A stretch of 64,000 bases of DNA from a virus (lineage: Duplodnaviria; Caudoviricetes), in IMG/VR virus record IMGVR_UViG_3300002220_000740, positions 1 through 64,000 of that record; one strand, 5' to 3'. The notes beneath the pieces are model-generated. The model worked only from the letters and a program-made list of their open reading frames with translations, was not told where the DNA came from and did no database searches. Positions within the stretch are counted from its first letter, which is position 1. Each line of letters opens with the position of its first letter. Below are positions 2,704-21,622 of the stretch, piece by piece. Made by a program: the position numbers and the translations under genes.

Positions 2704-2871
2704 AGTTGCCCGGAGTTCCTTGACATAGAGATAACTTATCATCTCCCCCAAATGCCAACAACGGTACAGGGAGATCATAGAAAAGGAAAAATAGCGTGAA
2801 GACCGCTAAAATGCCAAATGGCTGAAACCTTGTTATCGCCACCGAATTGATGAACATTAAACTATTTCGTC

Positions 2872-3141
2872 ATGAGCGACATATTGAACGTTGGAAACCG
2901 CGTGAAGATATTGATGGGGAAACCCTATTTTGACTATCACGCACCGAACATTACAAAAGACCTGAAGCCCGAACTTGTAGGGAAAAGGGGAACGATCCTG
3001 GACCGGCATCCTATGAAAGGGTACTGGGTCCTGATAGATACTCGACTGCCCATCACAGGCAAGGGTCTTTTCTGGTTCAATGAGCTCTGTATACGCCGGT
3101 TGACATTTTTTGAGAAAGTAGTTGACTGGCTTCACAATTAA
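2872..3141 (+). CDS. Hypothetical protein (SH3/KOW-like)
   Basis: LNVGNRVKI...VGKRGTIL pattern. Confidence 0.5.
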   Translation: MSDILNVGNRVKILMGKPYFDYHAPNITKDLKPELVGKRGTILDRHPMKGYWVLIDTRLPITGKGLFWFNELCIRRLTFFEKVVDWLHN

Positions 3142-3636: not shown

Positions 3637-3641
3637 AACAG

Positions 3642-3715
3642 AGCAGGGTCACTGGAGTGGATCCCAGCCCAGACTCATAACCTGGTACACGCGTGTTCGA
3701 TTCACGCCCCTGCCA
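3642..3715 (+). tRNA. tRNA-Met(CAT), initiator-like 1:72 mismatch
   Basis: GCAGGG/CCCTGC acceptor, CTGG/CCAG D stem, CTCATAA loop, GCGTG-TTCGATT-CACGC T arm. Confidence 0.8.
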
Positions 3716-3735
3716 CAACCTAATAATAGAATAAG

Positions 3736-4380
3736 ATGGAACAGTTAGTAAAAATTACAGACAATGATGGCAAGAAGGCTGTCAGCGCAAAAGAACTTTA
3801 TGACGCCCTTGGGCTTGATAAGACCTCTTGGGCACGGTGGTATCGTAAGAATATCATTAACAATGAGTTTGCCATTGGTGGGGAAGATTGGACATATCTC
3901 GGCATCAAGCAGAGTAAGCCTCGTAATCAGGACTTTGTATTGACAATAGACTTTGCAAAGAAACTTGCCATGCTTACTCGTACCTCACAAGGGGATACGG
4001 TAAGGAAGTACTTTATTGAAATAGAAAAGTCATTCCTGCACAGGGATAATCCTCTTACACCGCTTGACCTGTTCAGAACTCAGATCAAGGTAATGGAGGC
4101 ACAGGAAACCAGGATCAAGGCGCTTGAGTCTGCTGTTACCGATCTTGCGATCAAGACTGCAACTCGCCCTGATTACTTTTCCATAGTGGGATATGCATCC
4201 AAGAACGGAGTAAACATCACTCTCAGGATGGCACAGTCACTGGGACTGAAAGCCCGAAACCTGTGCATTAAAAACAACATGCCCATTGACTCAGTTCCTG
4301 ACCCGAGGTTTGGAAGAGTAGGGCTGTACCCTGCCCTCATGCTGCAAGAAGCATTCATAAGTTCAGGGATCACTCTTTAA
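3736..4380 (+). CDS. AntA/AntB-family antirepressor
   Basis: VSAKELYDALG...WARW...LTIDFAKKLAML...GDTVRKYFIEIEK AntA signature; C-terminal VPDPRFGRV motif. Confidence 0.85.
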   Translation: MEQLVKITDNDGKKAVSAKELYDALGLDKTSWARWYRKNIINNEFAIGGEDWTYLGIKQSKPRNQDFVLTIDFAKKLAMLTRTSQGDTVRKYFIEIEKSFLHRDNPLTPLDLFRTQIKVMEAQETRIKALESAVTDLAIKTATRPDYFSIVGYASKNGVNITLRMAQSLGLKARNLCIKNNMPIDSVPDPRFGRVGLYPALMLQEAFISSGITL

Positions 4381-5850: not shown

Positions 5851-6021
5851 TTTGTTTTGTTTTTTTTCATGTTTTGGGTTAGGTTGGGAAACGCCCTCAG
5901 AGATGGGGGCGTTTTTTATCCAACACAATGTATGATACAAAATGTTTGTCACGTTATTGCCGTTAGAAACGTGACATCCGTAGTGCAAAATGTGTAATAC
6001 AAAATGCACAATTTTTGTAAA

Positions 6022-6071
6022 GTGGGTTAAACGTTATTCACTCTTTGTGGGGTGGGATAAACGTTATTCAC
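6022..6071 (+). repeat. 20-bp direct repeat x2 (iteron-like)
   Basis: GTGGGTTAAACGTTATTCAC (6022-6041) and GTGGGATAAACGTTATTCAC (6052-6071), 30-bp period. Confidence 0.8.
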
Positions 6072-10059: not shown

Positions 10060-10260
10060 ATGAACAGAATTAAGGAAGTACTTGAAGAAAAAGGAATAAA
10101 ACAAACTTGGTTGGCTGAACAACTCGGAAAGAGTTATAATATGGTGAACGGTTACGTACAAAACCGACAACAACCACGACTTGAAGTGCTTTATGAAATT
10201 GCTAAAATATTGGACGTTGAAGTTAAAGACTTACTAATTGAACAAAAAGATAAGAAATGA
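10060..10260 (+). CDS. XRE/Cro-C1 HTH regulator (controller-like) of the R-M operon
   Basis: MNRIKEVLEEKGIKQTWLAEQLGKSYNMVNGYVQNRQQPRLEVLYEIAKILDV; overlaps the mod start. Confidence 0.9.
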   Translation: MNRIKEVLEEKGIKQTWLAEQLGKSYNMVNGYVQNRQQPRLEVLYEIAKILDVEVKDLLIEQKDKK

Positions 10261-12890
10261 GCAACATATACGAACAAAGATTTTTTTCCGCCTTGAAAGA
10301 CACGTTTATTGGACACCCGATTAAAGGTAAGTCAGGCTATGTGAATTTAATGGACATCAAAGCACAGTACTTTGCTGAGATTGAACCTTACATAAAAGCA
10401 GAAATAGACAAACAGATTGAAGCAAAATTCAGAGAAGAATTATTTGAAAAGCTTTACAGCTTTTTTGATTGTTACCTTAACGAAACTGGAACTGTTTTTT
10501 TCGCCAATTCTCAAATTCACAAAAACCTTTACGAAAAAGTCTATTCAGACCGTGATGATGTTGCCTTGTTTTGGAAAACACAGAAACTCTATTACGTAAA
10601 ATCGGAAGCGAATTATGAAGATTTACAAACCGAAGTAAACGGCATTAAAATACTGTTTGATGCTTCTGAAATAAAACACGCCAAAGGCAACGAGAAAAAA
10701 GCCATTCAATTTTTTATAGTAAAAGCCACCAAGGAAGAAGTGGTCTTCAAAATTCGCTATCAGGAAAACAACAAATACGACCGTCTAAAAGAATATTTGG
10801 GTTTAGATAAAAATAATGATTTAATTGATAAATGCTTGGATGAGTATAATTCGTCACTTCATCCAAACTTGATTTTTGAAAAAACACAAATTGACCAAAC
10901 TGTACTTGACAAGAAAACCGACAGCAGAAAATGCTTGTATATTGAAAATATTGACGATACCTTAAAATCAGTAAAAGTTGAATATAGTATTAACGACTTG
11001 ACTTTGATGTTGCAATATTTACATAAGAAAGGGATTATACTTTATGAAGAAGACCTGAAAAAAATATTTAGCATCTATAAACGCCAAAACGAAATTGATT
11101 ACTTTATACACAAAGATGCCGAAGGTTTTTTAAAAGAACAGTTTGACATTTATGTGTATAATTGGCTGTTTAACGACTTGGAAACAGACTTTGATGCAGC
11201 TACGGTAAAACGAATGCAAAACATCAAAAAAATTGCGCACAAAGTAATCGAATATATTGCAAGGTTTGAAGATGAACTCAAAGCCATTTGGGAGAAACCT
11301 AAGTTTGCAAAAAATTGCAATTATGTTCTGACTCTTGACAAATTAGCCGATAAGATTGAGCTAATTGAAAAGCTGATTACCAGCCCGGGATGGAAAAATC
11401 AGGTAGATGAATGGAAAGAACTTCATAAGGAATGGCTAGATGATAAAGGCGAAATAATAAAAAAAGAATGGTCTGAATTTGCTTTTTCTAATGAAAAAGG
11501 ATTTGTAAAGGAAATCATAGTCAAAGACAAGCTAAACGTTAAATACCAGTATTTACCTATTGACACAAAATTCTTCCCTGAATATAAATTTCAGATTCTT
11601 TCTTCATTTAATAATTTACACAGTAACCTTGATGGAACCATCATTAAAACTGATAATTGGCAAGGATTAAATACAGTAAAAGAAAAATATTTAGATAGAA
11701 TAGACTTAATTTATATTGACCCTCCATTTAACACCGGTAGTGATTTTAAATATAAAGATGCTTATCAAGATAGCACTTGGCTATCCCTTATTTTTGATAG
11801 AGTACTAATAACTAATAAATTATTAAGAAAGTCAGGGACTTTTTATTTCCATATTGATTATAGAGCAAATTATCTAGGTAGAATATTACTTGATAGAGTT
11901 TATGGTAAAAACAACTTTTTAAATGAAATAATATATGGTTATAGGATTCAAGGTATAAAGCGAAATGCCTATGCAAATAAACACGATACAATATTTGCGT
12001 ATACCAAAACTAATCCTGACTTAAACATTCATAAATTTCATCCTGAAAAAGAAAAACAGATTTATAATAAACCTTTCATAGATACTCAAACAATTTCACC
12101 TGATTTTTCTAAAATTAGCCAAAAGGATAGGGATTTAATTCTGAATTCAATTAAAAATGGCACTCCATTAAATGATAAATTCAAAGAAACTTTATTTAAT
12201 CAATACTTTGCTGAAACATTTATACGTGATATATGGGACCATGATAAAACAAAGCCCTTAATATCTGGCTCCTCAGAATATTTAAAATTTCAAACACAAA
12301 AGTCAGAAGGCTTGTTGTCTAGAATCATTGAAAACTCCTCTGATAAAGGTGATACGGTTTTAGATTTTTTCTCAGGTAGTGGAACAACTATAGCAACTGC
12401 CCATAAATTGAAGAGAAAATGGCTTGCAATGGAAATGGGTGAACATTTTAATGGTACAAATATTCCGAGATTAAAATGGACTCTTATTGGAAATTGCATT
12501 GGCATATCGAATGATGCTAATTATAGAGGTGGTGGGTTTTTTAAATATTATGAATTAGAGCAGTATGAAGAGGTATTGGCGAATGCCAAATTTCAATGGC
12601 AAGGCAATTTAGGACAAATTCAAGTAGAAAAATACAGTTTTATGCAAGACCAAAAATTGCTGGATGCCATTGAAATTGATTATGCGAACAAAAACGCTAA
12701 ATTGGTTTTTGAAACTCTATACCAAGATGTTGATATAGCCGAAACCTTATCAAATATCTCAGGCAAGCACATAAAACAGATTTTTGAAGACAAAGTAGTG
12801 TTTGAAGATGGCAGCGAAGTAGTGTATGCCGAAATGACTTTCGAAAAATACCCCTGGGTTAAGCCATTGATTTGGTGGAACAGCAAATAA
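10257..12890 (+). CDS. mod: Type III R-M methyltransferase subunit (Mod)
   Basis: LIYIDPPFNTG (motif IV) preceding VLDFFSGSGTT (motif I); GGGFFKYYEL; adjacent Res. Confidence 0.9.
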   Translation: MSNIYEQRFFSALKDTFIGHPIKGKSGYVNLMDIKAQYFAEIEPYIKAEIDKQIEAKFREELFEKLYSFFDCYLNETGTVFFANSQIHKNLYEKVYSDRDDVALFWKTQKLYYVKSEANYEDLQTEVNGIKILFDASEIKHAKGNEKKAIQFFIVKATKEEVVFKIRYQENNKYDRLKEYLGLDKNNDLIDKCLDEYNSSLHPNLIFEKTQIDQTVLDKKTDSRKCLYIENIDDTLKSVKVEYSINDLTLMLQYLHKKGIILYEEDLKKIFSIYKRQNEIDYFIHKDAEGFLKEQFDIYVYNWLFNDLETDFDAATVKRMQNIKKIAHKVIEYIARFEDELKAIWEKPKFAKNCNYVLTLDKLADKIELIEKLITSPGWKNQVDEWKELHKEWLDDKGEIIKKEWSEFAFSNEKGFVKEIIVKDKLNVKYQYLPIDTKFFPEYKFQILSSFNNLHSNLDGTIIKTDNWQGLNTVKEKYLDRIDLIYIDPPFNTGSDFKYKDAYQDSTWLSLIFDRVLITNKLLRKSGTFYFHIDYRANYLGRILLDRVYGKNNFLNEIIYGYRIQGIKRNAYANKHDTIFAYTKTNPDLNIHKFHPEKEKQIYNKPFIDTQTISPDFSKISQKDRDLILNSIKNGTPLNDKFKETLFNQYFAETFIRDIWDHDKTKPLISGSSEYLKFQTQKSEGLLSRIIENSSDKGDTVLDFFSGSGTTIATAHKLKRKWLAMEMGEHFNGTNIPRLKWTLIGNCIGISNDANYRGGGFFKYYELEQYEEVLANAKFQWQGNLGQIQVEKYSFMQDQKLLDAIEIDYANKNAKLVFETLYQDVDIAETLSNISGKHIKQIFEDKVVFEDGSEVVYAEMTFEKYPWVKPLIWWNSK

Positions 12891-12901
12891 TTTGAAAAAC
12901 A

Positions 12902-15829
12902 ATGGCAAAAATAGTTTTAGAAAAATTAGTTAAAGACAATCCAACAAGTTTGCCTGAGTTCTTCAAGAACTTGGATAAAGAAACCTTTGGAATTGACTGG
13001 AAGCTACACGAATACCAACAAACGGCACTCAAACACGCTTTGAATACGCTTTACTATTTCTATAACCAGAAAGATCATTTATCTAATCATTACCAATCTC
13101 AAACCAATGAAGATTGGAAACGAGAAATGAGTTATGCCAATGACAGCACTCATTTTGGTTTGCTTGGTCAATATTTTGAAATAGAAGACAATCAAATACC
13201 TTACACACAATTTTTGAATCGTGCCTCGCTTTGGATGGCAACAGGTTCTGGAAAAACATTGGTATTGATTAAACTCATTGAGTTTTTACATCAGTTAGCC
13301 ACTTTTAATTACATACCTAAAAACGACATATTAATTCTTGCTCCTAAACCTGAAATACTCAATCAGGTTAAAGAACATATTGTAGTTTTCAATAAAAACA
13401 GTTCTGTAAAAATTAATCTCAAAGATTTAAGAGAGTTTGAGAAATCAAAACACATTCAAACCTCACTCTATGAACCTGATGGTATCACAGTTTTTTATTA
13501 CCGAAGCGACAATATTACAGATGTCGATAAAACCGAGCAATTGAGTTATAAAACGGTTTTGAATAATGGGAAATGGTATGTACTACTTGATGAAGCACAC
13601 AAAGGCGATAAAGAAGACAGTATCCGTCAGGCTTATTACTCTATTTTAGCATCTAAAGGTTTTATTTTTAGTTTTTCCGCTACTTTCACTGATACAGTTG
13701 ATATTGTAACAACAGCCTATAATTTCAACTTAAAAAAATTCATAGAATCAGGTTATGGAAAGCATATTACTGTAAGTGGTCAAGAGTATAAAAATTGGAA
13801 CAAAAACAAAGGAGAGTTTTCTGAAACCGATAAAACGGAAATGGTTGTAAAATCTTTATTGGTACTAACAGCCATTAAGAAAGAAACTGCATTTATTAAA
13901 ACGCACCATCCCGGTTTATATCACAATCCTTTATTGATTACTATTGCAAACGAAGTAAATACAGTAGATGCAGAACTAAAACTATTTTTTAAGCAATTAG
14001 CTATTGTAGCATCAGGCAAATATGATATTGAAAAAGCAATTGAAGACTTAAGTACAGATTTGTTAATAAACAAAGCCTACCAATTCAATACTGCGGAAAT
14101 TCCTTCTTCGTTTATTCAAATTATTCAGAACATAAGTAAAGAAGATATATTAAAGTATGTTTTCAATGCTTCTGCATTTGGGAAAATAGAGTACACTCGA
14201 ATTTTAAATAATACCCGTGAAGTTGCTTTCAGATTAAAAACGGCAGAAGCAGGTCAGCATTTTTGTTTGTTAGTAGCATCAGATGCAACCAAATGGAGTG
14301 AAAATGTTTTAGAGAATTACGAATACACCGAAACTCCATTAACTAAATCGTATTTCAAGACAATCAATAGTCAAGAAAGTGACCTTAACATTTTGTTGGG
14401 TTCTAGAATTTTTACCGAAGGTTGGGATAGTAACCGTCCTAACGTAGTGAACTTTATCAATATTGGTGTTGATGAAGGTACACAGAAATTTGTTTTACAA
14501 GCAATTGGTCGCGGTGTACGAATTCAACCTGTGCCAGGCATTCGTAAACGTTTAGACTATATCGTTAATACAGAAGAAAGTGAAACACTTTCAAGATACA
14601 TTGATATCAAAGCAAAGGCGGAAATATTAAAAAGAAACTTGCCTCTAGAGAGTTTGTTCCTTTTTGCCACCAAGAAAGAAGTAATTAAAAATATTACTGA
14701 AAATTTAAGTAGAGAAAAAGATGCTGACGATTGGAAAACTGTGAAACACCTTTCAAGAACTAAAATTCCACAAGAATTACTTATTCCGAAATACGAAGAA
14801 GTAATTGCTGAAATTCCTGCTTATTCAATTAATAAAGAAGAATACAATGAATTAGTTGATTTTGTTGGAGCCGAAGCAGGTTCAAAAGACAAAATTGTAT
14901 TGATGCAAGCACCTATCAATGTTTCAAAAACCTTAGTTTCAGCTTTGGAAAAAATCAGAATTGAAGGTAATTTCAATTTCACAGTTTCCCATTCTAGTCG
15001 AAAACCAATTGACAATTTATTACTTCTTAATCACCACTTTCATCAAAAACCAAAACTTTTAAAGTCATTTGAACCTCTACTAACAGAAATCAATCACTTT
15101 GATAAAATTGAAGTTGCTTATCTTCCTGATAATGAACTTGGATTGTTAGAACAGGCGATTTTATCCTCCTTGAAAGGTAACAAGTCCGTATATAATTCTG
15201 TTGGTGATATTGTTGCTGCATATAATGCTAAAAAATTAAATGACCAACAACTTCAAGAACAACTTGACCTTTTTAATAATCAAGGAAAACCAAATACCTA
15301 CACTTACAACGGATTAAAAATTGAACTCAATACTGACTTTTTAGTAGAGCATTATTACAATCCGATTTTATTGACTTCAGAAGCACATAAACAACTTTTC
15401 AAACATATTATTTGGGTTCCTTCTGAAGTTGAGTTATTAAAGAAACTACACGATAATAGAGACAAGCTTGAAAAGTTTGAATGGTGGTATTTTTCTAAAA
15501 TTGACCAAACAACTGATGATGTTTCAATTCCTTACTACGACACAAGAGAACAAGAATACAGAAATTTTTTTCCTGACTTTGTTTTTTGGTTAAAAGCGAA
15601 ATACACTGACAAGTTAATTATTAAATTTATTGACCCTAAAGGAAATGTTGTTGGAACTGGAAACGCAGAAGATAAAGCTAAAGGTTACGAGAATATTTTC
15701 AATGACCACTCTATAAAATATAATAACAAAGAAGTACAAATAGACCTTTTCTTTTATAACGAACCGACTGGGGTTAACGAATCTGTTAAAGATTATTTTA
15801 CCAAGGACTTTAAAAAAATGTTTGAATAA
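12902..15829 (+). CDS. res: Type III R-M restriction subunit (Res)
   Basis: MATGSGKT, LDEAH, FSATF, EGWD, QAIGRGVR helicase motifs; C-terminal PDF...IDPKG nuclease. Confidence 0.9.
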   Translation: MAKIVLEKLVKDNPTSLPEFFKNLDKETFGIDWKLHEYQQTALKHALNTLYYFYNQKDHLSNHYQSQTNEDWKREMSYANDSTHFGLLGQYFEIEDNQIPYTQFLNRASLWMATGSGKTLVLIKLIEFLHQLATFNYIPKNDILILAPKPEILNQVKEHIVVFNKNSSVKINLKDLREFEKSKHIQTSLYEPDGITVFYYRSDNITDVDKTEQLSYKTVLNNGKWYVLLDEAHKGDKEDSIRQAYYSILASKGFIFSFSATFTDTVDIVTTAYNFNLKKFIESGYGKHITVSGQEYKNWNKNKGEFSETDKTEMVVKSLLVLTAIKKETAFIKTHHPGLYHNPLLITIANEVNTVDAELKLFFKQLAIVASGKYDIEKAIEDLSTDLLINKAYQFNTAEIPSSFIQIIQNISKEDILKYVFNASAFGKIEYTRILNNTREVAFRLKTAEAGQHFCLLVASDATKWSENVLENYEYTETPLTKSYFKTINSQESDLNILLGSRIFTEGWDSNRPNVVNFINIGVDEGTQKFVLQAIGRGVRIQPVPGIRKRLDYIVNTEESETLSRYIDIKAKAEILKRNLPLESLFLFATKKEVIKNITENLSREKDADDWKTVKHLSRTKIPQELLIPKYEEVIAEIPAYSINKEEYNELVDFVGAEAGSKDKIVLMQAPINVSKTLVSALEKIRIEGNFNFTVSHSSRKPIDNLLLLNHHFHQKPKLLKSFEPLLTEINHFDKIEVAYLPDNELGLLEQAILSSLKGNKSVYNSVGDIVAAYNAKKLNDQQLQEQLDLFNNQGKPNTYTYNGLKIELNTDFLVEHYYNPILLTSEAHKQLFKHIIWVPSEVELLKKLHDNRDKLEKFEWWYFSKIDQTTDDVSIPYYDTREQEYRNFFPDFVFWLKAKYTDKLIIKFIDPKGNVVGTGNAEDKAKGYENIFNDHSIKYNNKEVQIDLFFYNEPTGVNESVKDYFTKDFKKMFE

Positions 15830-18426: not shown

Positions 18427-18431
18427 CAAGG

Positions 18432-18998
18432 ATGAAAAAAGCAATTGTAACACTGAAGGGGATTTCCCCTTATTCACAAGGAAAAAATATCACAGAACCA
18501 AAATTACCAAAAGAACTCGCAGATGCTTATGAATTAAGAGTATGGCGTGAACGAATGCATGTAGATGAAAATGATAATGTCATTATCCCACCCATGCAAT
18601 TTGCAAATTCTCTTAAAGAAGCTGCAAAGTATCTATCTCTTCCTGTACCAGGAAAAGGTAAACAGCTATTTACCAAACATTTTGAATCAGGTGTAATGGT
18701 GTTGGATCCACTATCGCTTAAGATCAATAAAAAAGATGTACCATGTGAAGCTGTATTTGTACCAGCCAATGGACAAAGGGGTAGTGCCGCAAGAGTTATG
18801 AAATACTTTCCACTGTTCAAAGCAGGATGGGTTGGTGAAGTAACATATATCATTACAGATGATATTATTACTGAGGATATATTTCGTCAGGTACTTGAAG
18901 CGTGTGGAAGCTTAATAGGCATTGGAAGATTTCGTCCCAGGAACTGGGGCTATTATGGTCGTTTTGAAATAACTAAACTGAAATGGATAGAAAACTAA
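18432..18998 (+). CDS. Stand-alone RAMP (Cas7-like, Vipr-like) RNA-binding protein
   Basis: N-terminal strand VTLKGISP, IIPPMQFANSLKEAA (cf. RAMP 'IPGSSLKG' helix), C-terminal Gly-rich loop GIGRFRPRNWGYYGRF. Confidence 0.8.
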   Translation: MKKAIVTLKGISPYSQGKNITEPKLPKELADAYELRVWRERMHVDENDNVIIPPMQFANSLKEAAKYLSLPVPGKGKQLFTKHFESGVMVLDPLSLKINKKDVPCEAVFVPANGQRGSAARVMKYFPLFKAGWVGEVTYIITDDIITEDIFRQVLEACGSLIGIGRFRPRNWGYYGRFEITKLKWIEN

Positions 18999-19537
18999 AG
19001 CCAACCCTTACAATTCAAGAAGTTAGTGTTGAGACATTAACAATTGAAGCGTTCTTAAGCGAAGTAAAAGCTCCGGGATTAAAGTTATCCTACGAAGAGA
19101 TAAGCACAGCAACTGGTGTTACTCTTGATGTCAGAGGTAAAACATATCTTAGAACAGCTTTGAAAAGACTTAAAATTGAGTACCTGACTTATCGAAACTG
19201 GGGGATAGCTATGCCATCTAAGACAACAGCTATGAATGTTATTGATGATCGTATGCTTAAGACTCACAGAGCTGTGAAGAAGACACGCAGGGCTGAAGTT
19301 AATATTGGAACTGAGTTTCAAGGTAAATTCTCAAAACCAACTCAGGAAAGATTTGATAAATCAGTATACATCACATCTGAGCTTAATAAGACAATTTCCA
19401 AGCATCTTCGATCAAATAAAGCTAAAACGGTAAAACCCGTTAAATCACCCAGTCCTAAAGATTGTTTCCAATTTGAAGACACTAACAATAATTCGAAGTT
19501 CGTTGAATCGAAGCTCGTTGGAGCAGAGTTAGGTTAG
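18983..19537 (+). CDS. Basic accessory protein, wHTH-like, overlapping the RAMP gene
   Basis: LSYEEISTATG...LRTALKRL...YRNWGI resembles wHTH; Lys-rich; 3' end runs into the first pentamer tract. Confidence 0.6.
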   Translation: MDRKLKPTLTIQEVSVETLTIEAFLSEVKAPGLKLSYEEISTATGVTLDVRGKTYLRTALKRLKIEYLTYRNWGIAMPSKTTAMNVIDDRMLKTHRAVKKTRRAEVNIGTEFQGKFSKPTQERFDKSVYITSELNKTISKHLRSNKAKTVKPVKSPSPKDCFQFEDTNNNSKFVESKLVGAELG

Positions 19538-19571
19538 ATGCGTTACAGCGCGATAAATTCAAGTGAGGCAT
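19497..19571 (+). ncRNA. Pentamer-periodic tract 1 (15 x RDY-NN), putative guide RNA
   Basis: agt-tc gtt-ga atc-ga agc-tc gtt-gg agc-ag agt-ta ggt-ta gat-gc gtt-ac agc-gc gat-aa att-ca agt-ga ggc-at, then GGA. Confidence 0.8.
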
Positions 19572-19574
19572 GGA

Positions 19575-19620
19575 GCCAGTAGCACGTCGCTTTAGTGGAG
19601 TATAGCCACAACTGGTACTA
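19575..19620 (+). ncRNA. Mini tRNA-like spacer 1 (degenerate)
   Basis: GCCAGT/ACTGGT stem, inner AGC/GCT hairpin, GTGG-7nt-CCAC T-like arm, tail ACTA. Confidence 0.55.
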
Positions 19621-19623
19621 ATA

Positions 19624-19683
19624 AACACGATTAAGTTCGGTTTCGCACGATTAGTTTCAGTGGAGTGCGGTAAATTAAGGTAA
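19624..19683 (+). ncRNA. Pentamer-periodic tract 2 (12 units), putative guide RNA
   Basis: aac-ac gat-ta agt-tc ggt-tt cgc-ac gat-ta gtt-tc agt-gg agt-gc ggt-aa att-aa ggt-aa, then GGA. Confidence 0.8.
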
Positions 19684-19690
19684 GGATTTC

Positions 19691-19742
19691 GTTCAGGAAG
19701 GCTAATGGCTTGTAATAGGTTCGATTCCTATCCTGAACACAA
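19691..19742 (+). ncRNA. Mini tRNA-like spacer 2
   Basis: 7-bp GTTCAGG/CCTGAAC acceptor stacked on ATAGG-TTCGATT-CCTAT T arm; one small AGGC/GCTT hairpin; tail ACAA. Confidence 0.85.
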
Positions 19743-19749
19743 TATAAAC

Positions 19750-19839
19750 AATGTATTATAATGCAACCTCGTGTGTCAGAATAAAGTACAGTTCGTTTTC
19801 GTTCGTTCTGGTGCGATGTAGTAAAGTTTAGTAAAGCAA
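19750..19839 (+). ncRNA. Pentamer-periodic tract 3 (18 units), putative guide RNA
   Basis: aat-gt att-at aat-gc aac-ct cgt-gt gtc-ag aat-aa agt-ac agt-tc gtt-tt cgt-tc gtt-ct ggt-gc gat-gt agt-aa agt-tt agt-aa agc-aa, then GGA. Confidence 0.8.
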
Positions 19840-19846
19840 GGATTAC

Positions 19847-19891
19847 ACCCAGGAAAGAGATCAGTAGGTTTGACTCCTACCCTGGGTACAA
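19847..19891 (+). ncRNA. Mini tRNA-like spacer 3
   Basis: 7-bp ACCCAGG/CCTGGGT acceptor, GTAGG-TTTGACT-CCTAC T arm, only a 10-nt linker, tail ACAA. Confidence 0.85.
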
Positions 19892-19898
19892 TTAAACT

Positions 19899-19963
19899 AA
19901 TCGGTTTAGTTATAGCAGAACGTGCTTCGGTTTAGTTTAGCTCGGTGAAATAAGGTAAGGTAA
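19899..19963 (+). ncRNA. Pentamer-periodic tract 4 (13 units), putative guide RNA
   Basis: aat-cg gtt-ta gtt-at agc-ag aac-gt gct-tc ggt-tt agt-tt agc-tc ggt-ga aat-aa ggt-aa ggt-aa, then a T-run. Confidence 0.8.
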
Positions 19964-19983
19964 TTTTTATTTAAAATCAAATT

Positions 19984-21129
19984 ATGATAACACTTCTTAA
20001 AATAGACAGTGCGGACAAGATCCGCGTTATCAACCTTGAGCCTACTGATAGTGGGATCAAGCGTACAGCCGGTGTATATGGTGGCAACCTGGTTGAGACA
20101 TTCACACCATGCAGCCCCAAGAACATTGGCAAATCCAACGAAACCAGGCTATCAGACCAGATAGCATCAGAGATTATCTCTACTGTAAATGAGAAATGCA
20201 ACGAAGGTTATGTTTGTATTCCTGTATCATTTGATGAAGGTGCCTCTGAAGCAGATATTCGTAAGTATATCAAGGAAAATGCTACAGCAGCTCCCCAGGC
20301 AATGCTTGCTAAGCAATATGAAGAAAAATACGCCGACTTTAAGAATGGTGTGCTTTGCAGCCCCAAGCTTGATGGACAGCGCTGTATGGCTGTTGTGCCT
20401 AAGAGTGGAGACATTATACTCTGGTCACGCGGGGGTAAGCAAATCGAGACAATGGGTCATATAGTAAGAGATCTTGAAATCCTTCGAGACAATGGATTTG
20501 TAGGTACCCTTGATGGAGAACTGTATTACCATGACAAGGGCGCTGAGAACTTCCAGGATATCATGAAAGCAATCAAGAAGTATCGTCCGGGAACGTCGGA
20601 AGACGTACAGTACTGGGTATATGATATCATCTCATTAACCGGAACTGCTCAGGACAGAGCTTTTGCATATGGTGTAGCTATCCATGGCTGTAATCTTACT
20701 CATATTCATGTAGTGCCTCAATTTATGGTACATTCAAAGAGAATAGCAGATGACTTTCACGAAGAAAATCTTGCTCAAGGCTACGAAGGAACAATGCTGA
20801 AGAACGCACTATCCCTATACCAGCCTGACAAACGGTCGTCAGATCTGCTCAAGCTAAAAGATTTTCAGGATGCAGAGTATCAAATTGTGGATATTGTGCC
20901 TATGGAACGTATGCCAGAGTGTGGAAAGGTTGTTTGCAACAGGATGTATGATGATGGTACATTCAAAACATTCACAGCTACACCCAAGGCAAGCTATGCT
21001 GATCGCAAAGAACTCCTGGATAACAAGAAAGATTACATTGGCAAGATGGCTACAATACAGTATTTCAGCCTGACTGATGATGGACTACCAAGGTTCCCAG
21101 TGATGAAAAGCATTCGTGAGGATATATAA
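19984..21129 (+). CDS. ATP-dependent DNA ligase
   Basis: SPKLDGQR (motif I), LDGELY, YEGTMLK, LLKLKDF, PRFPV. Confidence 0.95.
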   Translation: MITLLKIDSADKIRVINLEPTDSGIKRTAGVYGGNLVETFTPCSPKNIGKSNETRLSDQIASEIISTVNEKCNEGYVCIPVSFDEGASEADIRKYIKENATAAPQAMLAKQYEEKYADFKNGVLCSPKLDGQRCMAVVPKSGDIILWSRGGKQIETMGHIVRDLEILRDNGFVGTLDGELYYHDKGAENFQDIMKAIKKYRPGTSEDVQYWVYDIISLTGTAQDRAFAYGVAIHGCNLTHIHVVPQFMVHSKRIADDFHEENLAQGYEGTMLKNALSLYQPDKRSSDLLKLKDFQDAEYQIVDIVPMERMPECGKVVCNRMYDDGTFKTFTATPKASYADRKELLDNKKDYIGKMATIQYFSLTDDGLPRFPVMKSIREDI

Positions 21130-21207: not shown

Positions 21208-21283
21208 TAGAATGTAGCTCAGTTGGTGAGAGCAAGGGGTCTTAAACTCAGAGGTCGCAGGTTCGAATCCTGTCATTCTACCA
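21208..21283 (+). tRNA. tRNA with weak anticodon stem; positional anticodon TTA
   Basis: TAGAATG/CATTCTA, GCTC/GAGC D arm, AGGTC variable loop, GCAGG-TTCGAAT-CCTGT; loop TCTTAAA. Confidence 0.75.
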
Positions 21284-21284
21284 A

Positions 21285-21622
21285 ATCATTTTCGTTGACA
21301 CAATTAGTAACGCTACTCAGGACGCGGCTTCGACGCCGCCACCTCCACCAATAGTTTCTGGACTTAAACCAGATGGTGGACCCGCTGATTGTCTTCAGAT
21401 CAGCCCCTGTGTTGAGCTCACGTTAAAAAGCTCATCTCATAAGGGGGTGTAATGGATTTGACTGGTAGTCAGTATGAATTGCCGAGAAGATGATCTGCCT
21501 ATAAACGGCAAATTTTCAATCGCATCTGAAGGAAGGGTTGTTCCGATGACCCGTCAGCAGCTGAAAGCTGTTGCCTAAAGCGTTTCCGGTAGCTCCGGAT
21601 CGGGGAGTACGACAACTCCCCT
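21285..21622 (+). ncRNA. ssrA: Circularly permuted (two-piece) tmRNA
   Basis: Acceptor piece ending CACCTCCACCA (21350) precedes the 5' piece GGGGGTGTAATGGATTTGAC (21443). G3-U70 pair present. Tag ORF at 21507-21578 after ATAAAC. Confidence 0.85.

Follow-up and report, generated by a model that had tools for sequence, protein, structure and literature searches.

A predicted VIPR system with a loose scaffold triplet and tRNA-like separators in a crAss-like prophage

VIPR, first published in 2026, joined the RNA-guided systems only months ago; it is related to CRISPR and has been proposed to predate it. A Vipr protein is combined with vrRNAs of alternating GGY and NN, with one protomer per repeat; the GGY triplets are sequestered, the NN dinucleotides are displayed, double-stranded DNA is read with one skipped base, and transcription is silenced, the targets being competing phages and satellites (bioRxiv 10.64898/2026.04.26.720920 and 10.64898/2026.04.26.720927). 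The reference type II systems are those of Escherichia phage SUSP1 and of a Pseudomonas fulva prophage (10.64898/2026.04.26.720920), with cryo-electron microscopy reported in 10.64898/2026.04.26.720927 (PDB 36pp). Published VIPR systems are divided into seven types (I-VII), and 670 Vipr proteins are on record. Here we analyze a phage locus in which the gene for a 188-aa Cas7-like protein lies upstream of four tracts of pentamers. The window, to which coordinates refer unless a related locus is named, comprises positions 1-64,000 of the IMG/VR record IMGVR_UViG_3300002220_000740; the full virus record is 92,245 bp long. Judged by the Vipr homology and fold of the protein, by the pentamer code, and by the arrays found in its family, the locus is almost certainly a VIPR system.

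The published definition of a vrRNA, tandem 5-nt repeats of at least 4 units, accepts "a related consensus" to GGY; non-canonical repeats of the forms NNNGG, YNNNG, and NNNNG are on record, and arrays have been described with pseudoknot tails, as staggered, or as separated by hammerheads (10.64898/2026.04.26.720920). Non-canonical scaffolds of the types GAC/NN, CAC/NN, WGT/NN, and TGH/NN have also been described (10.64898/2026.10.21.760802). A first-pass annotation of the window had named phage VIPR systems as the parallel and had suggested that the locus might be an undescribed variant. The parallel was sound, as VIPR is real and published and the 188-aa protein is homologous to SUSP1 Vipr. 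The suggestion of novelty stands in part. The core discovery is already in the literature, and the kind of system is known; the variant features of the locus, both unusual, are a scaffold of the form R-D-Y (purine, not C, pyrimidine), degenerate at all three positions, and tRNA-like separators, and its setting in a temperate crAss-like phage is new.

The Cas7-like protein is encoded by the following gene.

vipr, 18432..18998, + strand: 188-aa minimal RAMP (Cas7-like), predicted by homology to be a filament-forming guide-RNA binder

The motifs on which the first-pass annotation had based its call of a RAMP protein are present in the open reading frame (ORF), namely ISP, an IIPP helix, and GIGRFRPRNWGYYGRF. 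A phmmer search of the protein against the sequences of solved structures gave a sole match, "SUSP1 Vipr protein" (PDB 36pp_D, E 1.9e-6), and a profile of the clade made from 28 homologues matched PDB 36pp with an E of 8.3e-9, spanning residues 80-181. The glycine-rich G-loop, GIGRFRPR, was aligned to GVGDWRPR of SUSP1 Vipr. An AlphaFold2 (AF2) model built on the homologue alignment had a predicted local distance difference test score (pLDDT) of 86.9, and its top Foldseek matches were Cas7 of type VII and Csm3 of type III (E down to 1.3e-8; 155 matches at E ≤ 0.001). The proposed Cas7-like fold is thus borne out by the model, and the sequence match is to SUSP1 Vipr. A further match (E 2.4e-14) was to phrog_4652, a PHROG without an assigned function, whereas Pfam yielded no family.

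The tracts downstream are as follows.

vrRNA 1 repeat tract, 19497..19571, + strand: 15 RDY-NN units
vrRNA 2 repeat tract, 19624..19683, + strand: 12 units, then the terminal unit GGATT (19684-19688)
vrRNA 3 repeat tract, 19750..19839, + strand: 18 units, then GGATT (19840-19844)
vrRNA 4 repeat tract, 19899..19963, + strand: 13 units
T-rich array end (TTTTTATTT), 19964..19983, + strand: directly before the ligase start codon; like the U-run that ends the vrRNAs of relatives

The tracts of 15, 12, 18, and 13 pentamers and the base counts per position given in the first-pass annotation proved exact on recount. Over the 58 units, position 1 is A in 30, G in 25, and C in 3 (purine 55/58), position 2 is G in 31, T in 13, A in 13, and C in 1, and position 3 is T in 45 and C in 13, so that it is a pyrimidine in all 58. 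Positions 4 and 5 are near-uniform, with entropies of 1.83 and 1.88 bits, respectively. The autocorrelation of purines and pyrimidines over 19480-19970, a control that the annotation had called for, was 0.263 at lag 5 as compared with −0.002 ± 0.045 (maximum 0.137) in 1000 shuffles. The signal therefore lies ∼5.8 standard deviations above the shuffles, with echoes at lags 10 and 15. Unbroken R..Y runs reach 15 and 13 units, whereas the longest run in 30 shuffles of the whole window was 10. The scaffold is R-D-Y and not the canonical GGY, which is found in only 10 of the units (GGT 9, GGC 1). No triplet is dominant, and the commonest, AGT, accounts for 21% of units. Motifs resembling ATAAA[CT] precede guides at 19614-19623, 19740-19749, and 19889-19897 and may act either as part of a promoter or as a handle at the 5′ end. 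A sigma-70 promoter scan returned 5 sites as compared with 5.8 expected, the consensus being uninformative for a Bacteroidota host.

The contacts made by SUSP1 Vipr with its scaffold were mapped on to the protein. Arg-179 of SUSP1 Vipr, which makes a cation-π interaction with Y3, aligns with Arg-168, and Trp-178, which stacks on G2, aligns with Phe-167; both residues are invariant in the clade. Arg-138, which salt-bridges G2, aligns with Phe-126, again invariant in the clade, and Asp-177, the reader of G1, aligns with Arg-166. As far as an alignment can indicate, this mapping is in keeping with a strict requirement at Y3 and more latitude at positions 1 and 2. However, GGC is still used by relatives with identical contact residues, and so the protein alone cannot explain the loose scaffold.

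Homologues of the 188-aa protein number more than 1100, at 55-68% identity. A homologue is encoded by 273 stretches in IMG/VR, and 28 further homologues were found in species genomes of Proteobacteria, Dehalococcoidales, cyanobacteria, Saccharibacteria, Flavobacteriaceae, and an archaeon. At 100 of 117 loci, tracts of at least 10 pentamers lie directly beside vipr and on the vipr strand. There is usually one dominant triplet per locus (50-95% of units in most relatives). The commonest is GGC, GTC or GTT is dominant in the nearest, AT-richer relatives (L001, L002, L013, L083, and L090), and GAC, AGC, and AAC dominate at other loci; C at position 2 is rare throughout the clade. The looseness of the scaffold forms a continuum across the clade, and L049, L091, and the present locus stand at its loosest extreme. 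The relaxed scaffold noted in the first-pass annotation is real, with the qualifications that non-canonical scaffolds had been published before and that the scaffold varies continuously among Vipr relatives. Tracts throughout the clade end in ...AA-GG[AT]-TT, and their start is preceded by a leader resembling ATAAA[CT]A. The sequence 3′ of AAGG[AT]TT is variable in the clade and consists of U-runs, C-runs, or differing hairpins.

The behavior of the two parts of the code can be followed in prophages of Burkholderia pseudomallei (L003-L008, positions 3640-4000), in which vipr is 91.5-100% identical. The upstream arrays of these prophages differ throughout in NN and in the number of guides, but scaffold and tails are kept; a downstream guide of 25 units is identical in all. 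The guides look as if they turn over in the manner of cassettes. Hypervariable NN in a retained scaffold is what the programmable-guide model predicts, and the comparison of homologous loci thus shows the conserved triplets and variable dinucleotides that the first-pass annotation had expected.

With CRISPR Cas7 proteins of types VII and III as its top structural matches, the gene could be taken for an orphan Cas7/Csm3 fragment unrelated to the tracts. We find this scarcely credible. The protein has direct sequence homology to Vipr and to no Cas7, its gene is tied to pentamer arrays across the clade in the proportion given above, and the period of those arrays is 5 nt, not 6 nt. Moreover, no Cas1 was found in the 92-kb genome, the other cas families not having been searched one by one, and the window contains neither a direct-repeat array of CRISPR type nor an Rfam CRISPR repeat above threshold. 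To this extent the first-pass statement that cas genes and CRISPR repeats are absent is upheld. The sole family of direct repeats in the window, at the settings used, is a tandem 30-nt repeat (80% identical) at 6009-6068.

The tracts are separated by the following elements, the second and third of which have the acceptor-stem/T-arm half of a tRNA.

spacer 1, 19572..19623, + strand: degenerate, with a 6-bp outer stem (GCCAGT/ACTGGT) and an inner 4-bp hairpin, then the ATAAAC leader
tRNA-like minihelix 2, 19691..19739, + strand: 7-bp acceptor stem (GTTCAGG/CCTGAAC), 5-bp T stem, T loop TTCGATT, and discriminator A; no D or anticodon arm
tRNA-like minihelix 3, 19847..19888, + strand: 7-bp acceptor stem (ACCCAGG/CCTGGGT), 5-bp T stem, loop TTTGACT, and discriminator A

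Elements 2 and 3 share one layout, made up of an outer Watson-Crick stem of 7 bp, a short linker, an inner hairpin (5-bp stem, 7-nt loop) that abuts the 3′ strand of the outer stem, and an unpaired A. Between the two, four stem pairs are changed on both sides and all remain paired, and the unpaired parts are nearly identical. Their fold z-scores are −2.1 and −2.05, respectively. Both strands of the 92-kb genome were scanned for Watson-Crick stems of 7 bp that enclose a second stem, of 5 bp, closed by a 7-nt loop resembling a T loop. This strict scan found exactly two sites, elements 2 and 3 of the array, compared with 0 in 40 shuffles. When any loop was allowed, the sole extra match was the tRNA-like domain of the phage tmRNA, which served as a positive control. 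Element 2 was matched by the Rfam tRNA model at 25.3 bits, below the gathering score of 29, when 651 nt were searched (E 0.0063); the D and anticodon arms of the model are deletions in this match. ARAGORN, which looks for the full cloverleaf, called no tRNA in the array, and no hammerhead was matched at E up to 10 in 19400-20050.

A relaxed minihelix scan of about 90 related loci (616 kb) found no such element beside a tract except in two identical copies of this phage, and the term "tRNA" does not occur in the body of four preprints on VIPR arrays. ARAGORN, run on 107 loci, found a tRNA adjoining an array in L080 only; here (2796-3017) a GGC/GAC-type array is followed, 59 nt past its final guide, by a true tRNA-Met gene of the same strand (Rfam, 56.3 bits), an arrangement that may have arisen by chance or reflect an att site or an aid to processing. 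A different arrangement is seen in L025 (4560-5460), where six GTC-type guides are separated by conserved spacers of ∼70 nt with two hairpins. An Rfam search of the spacers in L025 and seven other loci returned no family that explains them, and no hammerhead was found in L025; its two-hairpin spacers are another undescribed spacer type.

Elements 2 and 3 lie directly behind the clade-conserved guide end AAGGATT, where relatives carry U-runs. Each of guides 1-3 is followed by a fold, and guide 4 has none and ends in a T-run. Because the folds occupy the place of the U-runs, follow the conserved guide end, and are missing only from the last guide, we read them as signals for cleavage. In a VIPR system, the use of the tRNA-like folds as cleavage signals for RNase P and RNase Z is in our judgment somewhat better supported than its negation. 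In the mechanism that we propose, Vipr protomers would polymerize along each vrRNA, one per pentamer, as suggested by homology with the SUSP1 system. Each protomer would sequester the first three bases of its unit and present the last two, and the NN pairs would act jointly in reading double-stranded DNA, passing over one target base from each pair to the next. Transcription of a competing mobile element would be silenced by this binding. The sequestered triplet would be loose in this phage (purine, not C, pyrimidine), with only the pyrimidine strict. The array would be made as one transcript and cut by host tRNA-processing enzymes, RNase P acting 5′ of each acceptor stem to leave the clade-typical ...AAGGAUU guide end and RNase Z or a similar enzyme acting after the discriminator. 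That the array is transcribed, that filaments form, that DNA is silenced, and where cleavage and targeting occur are all points that we infer from the analysis. The explanation as a whole, a VIPR system with a loose triplet and with tRNA-like folds as cleavage signals for host enzymes, is the one that we consider probable. The more exacting proposition that host tRNA-processing enzymes mature the guides and also that the Vipr filament needs only purine, not C, and pyrimidine, with the pyrimidine as the sole strict position, is put forward tentatively and as somewhat less than an even prospect.

Several observations weigh against this explanation. The first concerns the separators themselves. 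The fold of spacer 1 has the layout of the other spacers, but its z-score of −0.46 is no better than that of shuffled sequences, and the Rfam tRNA model gave no separate match either to it or to element 3. Spacer 1 is not convincingly tRNA-like. The description of the spacers as tRNA mimics in the first-pass annotation accordingly holds for elements 2 and 3, by virtue of the strict scan and the compensatory changes, and fails for spacer 1. Second, a motif like ATAAAC stands before every guide and is found also in relatives that have no tRNA-like elements, among them the AT-rich L002, L013, and L083, so each guide may have its own promoter and a single transcript would not be needed. Third, cleavage by RNase P as proposed would strip the structured 3′ tail that the published vrRNAs keep.

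The last two points are also arguments for the main rival, in which the same VIPR system is at work but the folds stay on the guides as a structured 3′ tail that caps the filament and protects the 3′ end, like the SUSP1 pseudoknot. Each guide would then be driven by its own upstream motif, and the tail would perhaps imitate the end of a tRNA, whether for the addition of CCA or for resistance to nucleases. In published vrRNAs the repeat tract is indeed followed by a structured and conserved 3′ tail, ∼40 nt long, which caps the filament, and other structured tails, in the form of hairpins, occur in L003-L008, L025, and L089. Nevertheless, only AAGG[AT]TT is common to the guide ends of the clade, the sequence downstream not being conserved, and guide 4 lacks any fold. 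Furthermore, acceptor/T-arm minihelices are classical RNase P substrates and would be expected to be cut unless protected. We consider it less likely, though with an appreciable probability, that the folds are retained as tails, and prefer to regard them as cleavage signals.

The loose scaffold is a fourth point of difficulty, as it could reflect loss of function by drift. On such an account the locus would be a decaying or inactive VIPR remnant, with arrays no longer bound by protein. The low share of GGY and the want of a dominant triplet, where most relatives have one, would be understood in this way, as would the failure to find targets (below). However, drift would first erode just those features that are retained, the pyrimidine at position 3, the purine at position 1, and the near absence of C at position 2. 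The reading frame of vipr is unbroken, with 35 of 35 clade-invariant residues present, and the locus is found in near-identical copies of the phage from independent samples, in an alignment that is 100% identical with zero variation in the array. Similar mixed R-D-Y scaffolds also occur in relatives with AT-poor scaffolds (L049, L091, L001, and L083). Decay is for these reasons a very unlikely account, and a functional system with a loose triplet remains our preference.

Finally, no target was identified. Guides were compared with DNA under the rule NN, one skipped base, NN, and so on, following the published 1-nt skip. In a search of the 92-kb genome for self-targeting with all four guides under skips of 0-3 nt, no match rose above those of permuted guides, the 3-nt-skip matches being the guides themselves. 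Matches in the whole genome of the nearest relative phage (G001) were no better than those of permuted guides, and no target was found in 1.07 Mb of other loci. Exact seeds of 10-11 units from all four guides had 0 matches in IMG/VR, and the 13-unit core of guide 1, with up to 3 mismatches allowed, had 0 matches among 40 records of related crAss-like phages, a search made with this guide only. The VIPR papers applied a criterion of an 80% NN match, allowing ∼20% mismatch, and found no self-targeting either. As our searches were far less tolerant than this criterion and did not cover relatives of the host, the negative result is a weak one.

The vipr gene had been described as standing alone. 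This was not quite the case, as a conserved partner ORF sits between it and the tracts.

vap-like accessory gene, 18983..19537, + strand: winged-helix domain and long helical hairpin

In 18 of 118 loci a homologue of the vap-like gene adjoins vipr, and conservation extends over residues 10-123. An AF2 model (pLDDT 81.6) placed a winged helix at residues 16-76 and helices at 83-111 and 118-149, followed by a C terminus of low confidence. Its best fold matches were winged-helix regulators of the MarR/GntR/MntR type and were weak (E 4.6e-3). The 3′ end of the gene overlaps tract 1 by 41 nt, as there is no stop codon at the ATAAAC leader, where the gene of relatives stops, and the last ∼35 residues, which are non-conserved and disordered, are read into the tract. 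Vap proteins of some VIPR types are winged-helix or HTH-like (helix-turn-helix-like) DNA binders (bioRxiv 10.64898/2026.04.26.720920), and the ORF at 18983-19537, as modeled, matches this description.

A winged-helix gene directly upstream of the tracts also invites the view that they act as DNA, as arrays of winged-helix binding sites or as replication or recombination sites, and not as guide RNAs. A 5-bp period with two free bases per unit is unlike an array of DNA-binding sites, however, and the signal is strand-asymmetric, with C nearly absent from position 2, and is always on the vipr strand. In homologous systems such RNAs are made and bound, as found by small-RNA sequencing and pull-down, and the tRNA-like folds make sense only as RNA. 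A role of the tracts as DNA sites is, in view of this, highly improbable.

The crAss-like prophage setting assumed in the first-pass annotation was confirmed. A Crass_capsid gene and an ORF of 3987 aa are found in the phage, together with a tyrosine integrase, rIIA/rIIB, and a replication module. The same phage lies on larger contigs (111 kb and 165 kb), obtained from hydrocarbon-degrading methanogenic cultures, that run past a tRNA gene into SusC/SusD host genes, from which we conclude that the phage is an integrated crAss-like prophage of a Bacteroidota host. The host flank past the tRNA at the right end of the prophage (L212, 1-8650) holds SusC/SusD and a xanthine-dehydrogenase-like cluster; this 8.6-kb flank had no match at E 1e-20 among 401 Bacteroidia genomes. 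A few kb upstream of the VIPR cassette, at 10257-15829, is a type III-like restriction-modification pair consisting of an 877-aa methyltransferase and a 975-aa ResIII/DEAD helicase, so that the early region of the phage holds several conflict modules.

The nearest relative phage in IMG/VR, G001, whose DNA polymerase is 77% identical, lacks vipr. In the nearest relative the same slot upstream of the ligase (L202, 5493-7620; IMGVR_UViG_3300037486_000490) is occupied by a 269-aa KilA-N/Bro-like ORF. The absence of vipr and the presence of a KilA-N-like gene at the same spot indicate that the VIPR cassette (about 18427-19983) is an accessory module, and the gene content of the slot marks it as a hotspot of exchangeable accessory genes. 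Just downstream of the ligase, ARAGORN and Rfam identified a tRNA with the anticodon TTA (ochre suppressor) at 21208-21281 and, beside it, a circularly permuted tmRNA at 21290-21565. A TAA suppressor in a crAss-like phage may be a sign of stop-codon recoding in late genes. An origin of the minihelices from this suppressor tRNA was ruled out on inspection, as the stems differ.

Only for "staggered" arrays and for those that bear ribozymes is it known how a VIPR array is divided into its guides. If the cleavage reading is correct, tRNA-like punctuation would be a third route of maturation, based on host enzymes and requiring neither a Cas6-like nuclease nor a ribozyme, and would be a natural parallel to the engineered tRNA-gRNA arrays used for multiplexed CRISPR guides. 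If the loose triplet is functional, the minimal VIPR code would be redefined as purine, not C, and pyrimidine, with the pyrimidine as the sole strict position. A loose R-D-Y with a perfect pyrimidine is in effect a natural experiment on which scaffold positions Vipr needs and is relevant to the design of synthetic vrRNAs. The occurrence of VIPR in a temperate crAss-like phage of Bacteroidota, beside a type III restriction-modification block, fits competition between mobile elements.

Comparison with the SUSP1 system shows what the locus shares with a characterized VIPR. In both, a minimal single-RRM RAMP with a G-loop, homologous in the present case to SUSP1 Vipr, is encoded in a phage- or prophage-borne module of two genes, the other being an accessory gene of DNA-binding type. 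Both have an array of pentamer-repeat RNAs (predicted ones in the present case) of ∼60-90 nt each, with a fixed triplet and a variable dinucleotide, and both lack a CRISPR array and cas genes (here with Cas1 as the family searched and the others not one by one). The differences are substantial. The protein similarity is distant (E 1.9e-6) and confined to the C-terminal half. The scaffold is R-D-Y instead of GGY, and the residues that contact G1 and G2, Asp-177 and Arg-138, are replaced by Arg-166 and Phe-126. In place of the conserved pseudoknot tail, guide 1 is followed by a degenerate fold, guides 2 and 3 by tRNA-like minihelices, and guide 4 by a T-run. The guides are all situated downstream of vap, the host belongs to the Bacteroidota, and the phage is crAss-like.

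The published non-canonical VIPR arrays are closer in one respect, as they too combine a pentamer period and an adjoining Vipr-like protein with a scaffold other than GGY. Those arrays have another fixed triplet or one degenerate position, whereas degeneracy here extends to all three positions, a condition that is not described in the VIPR preprints examined. The scaffold retains no more than the purine/pyrimidine class of its bases and an avoidance of C at position 2, where loci of the clade usually have one dominant triplet.

The class 1 Cas7 filaments (Csm3 of type III and Cas7 of type VII) resemble the present protein in the RAMP fold, the G-loop, the thumb, and the use of one subunit per fixed number of nucleotides. 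The period is, however, 5 nt with three hidden bases, as opposed to 6 nt with one flipped, and the locus has no repeat-spacer array, adaptation genes, or large or small subunits of the kind found in class 1 CRISPR.

The hammerhead-interspersed arrays (fig. S19 of 10.64898/2026.04.26.720920) are like this array in having structured RNA between guides, presumed to free them from one transcript. No hammerhead was detected at the present locus, and the tRNA-like minihelices that take its place would call for host enzymes rather than self-cleavage. RNA processing punctuated by tRNA is familiar from mitochondrial tRNA punctuation, from the tRNA-like 3′ end of MALAT1/mascRNA, and from engineered polycistronic tRNA-gRNA arrays. 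As in tRNA punctuation, where the fold recruits RNase P and RNase Z, a fold is placed between functional RNAs. The folds of this array differ from those examples in being natural folds cut down to the acceptor stem and T arm and in standing within a VIPR array, where they are candidate cleavage signals.

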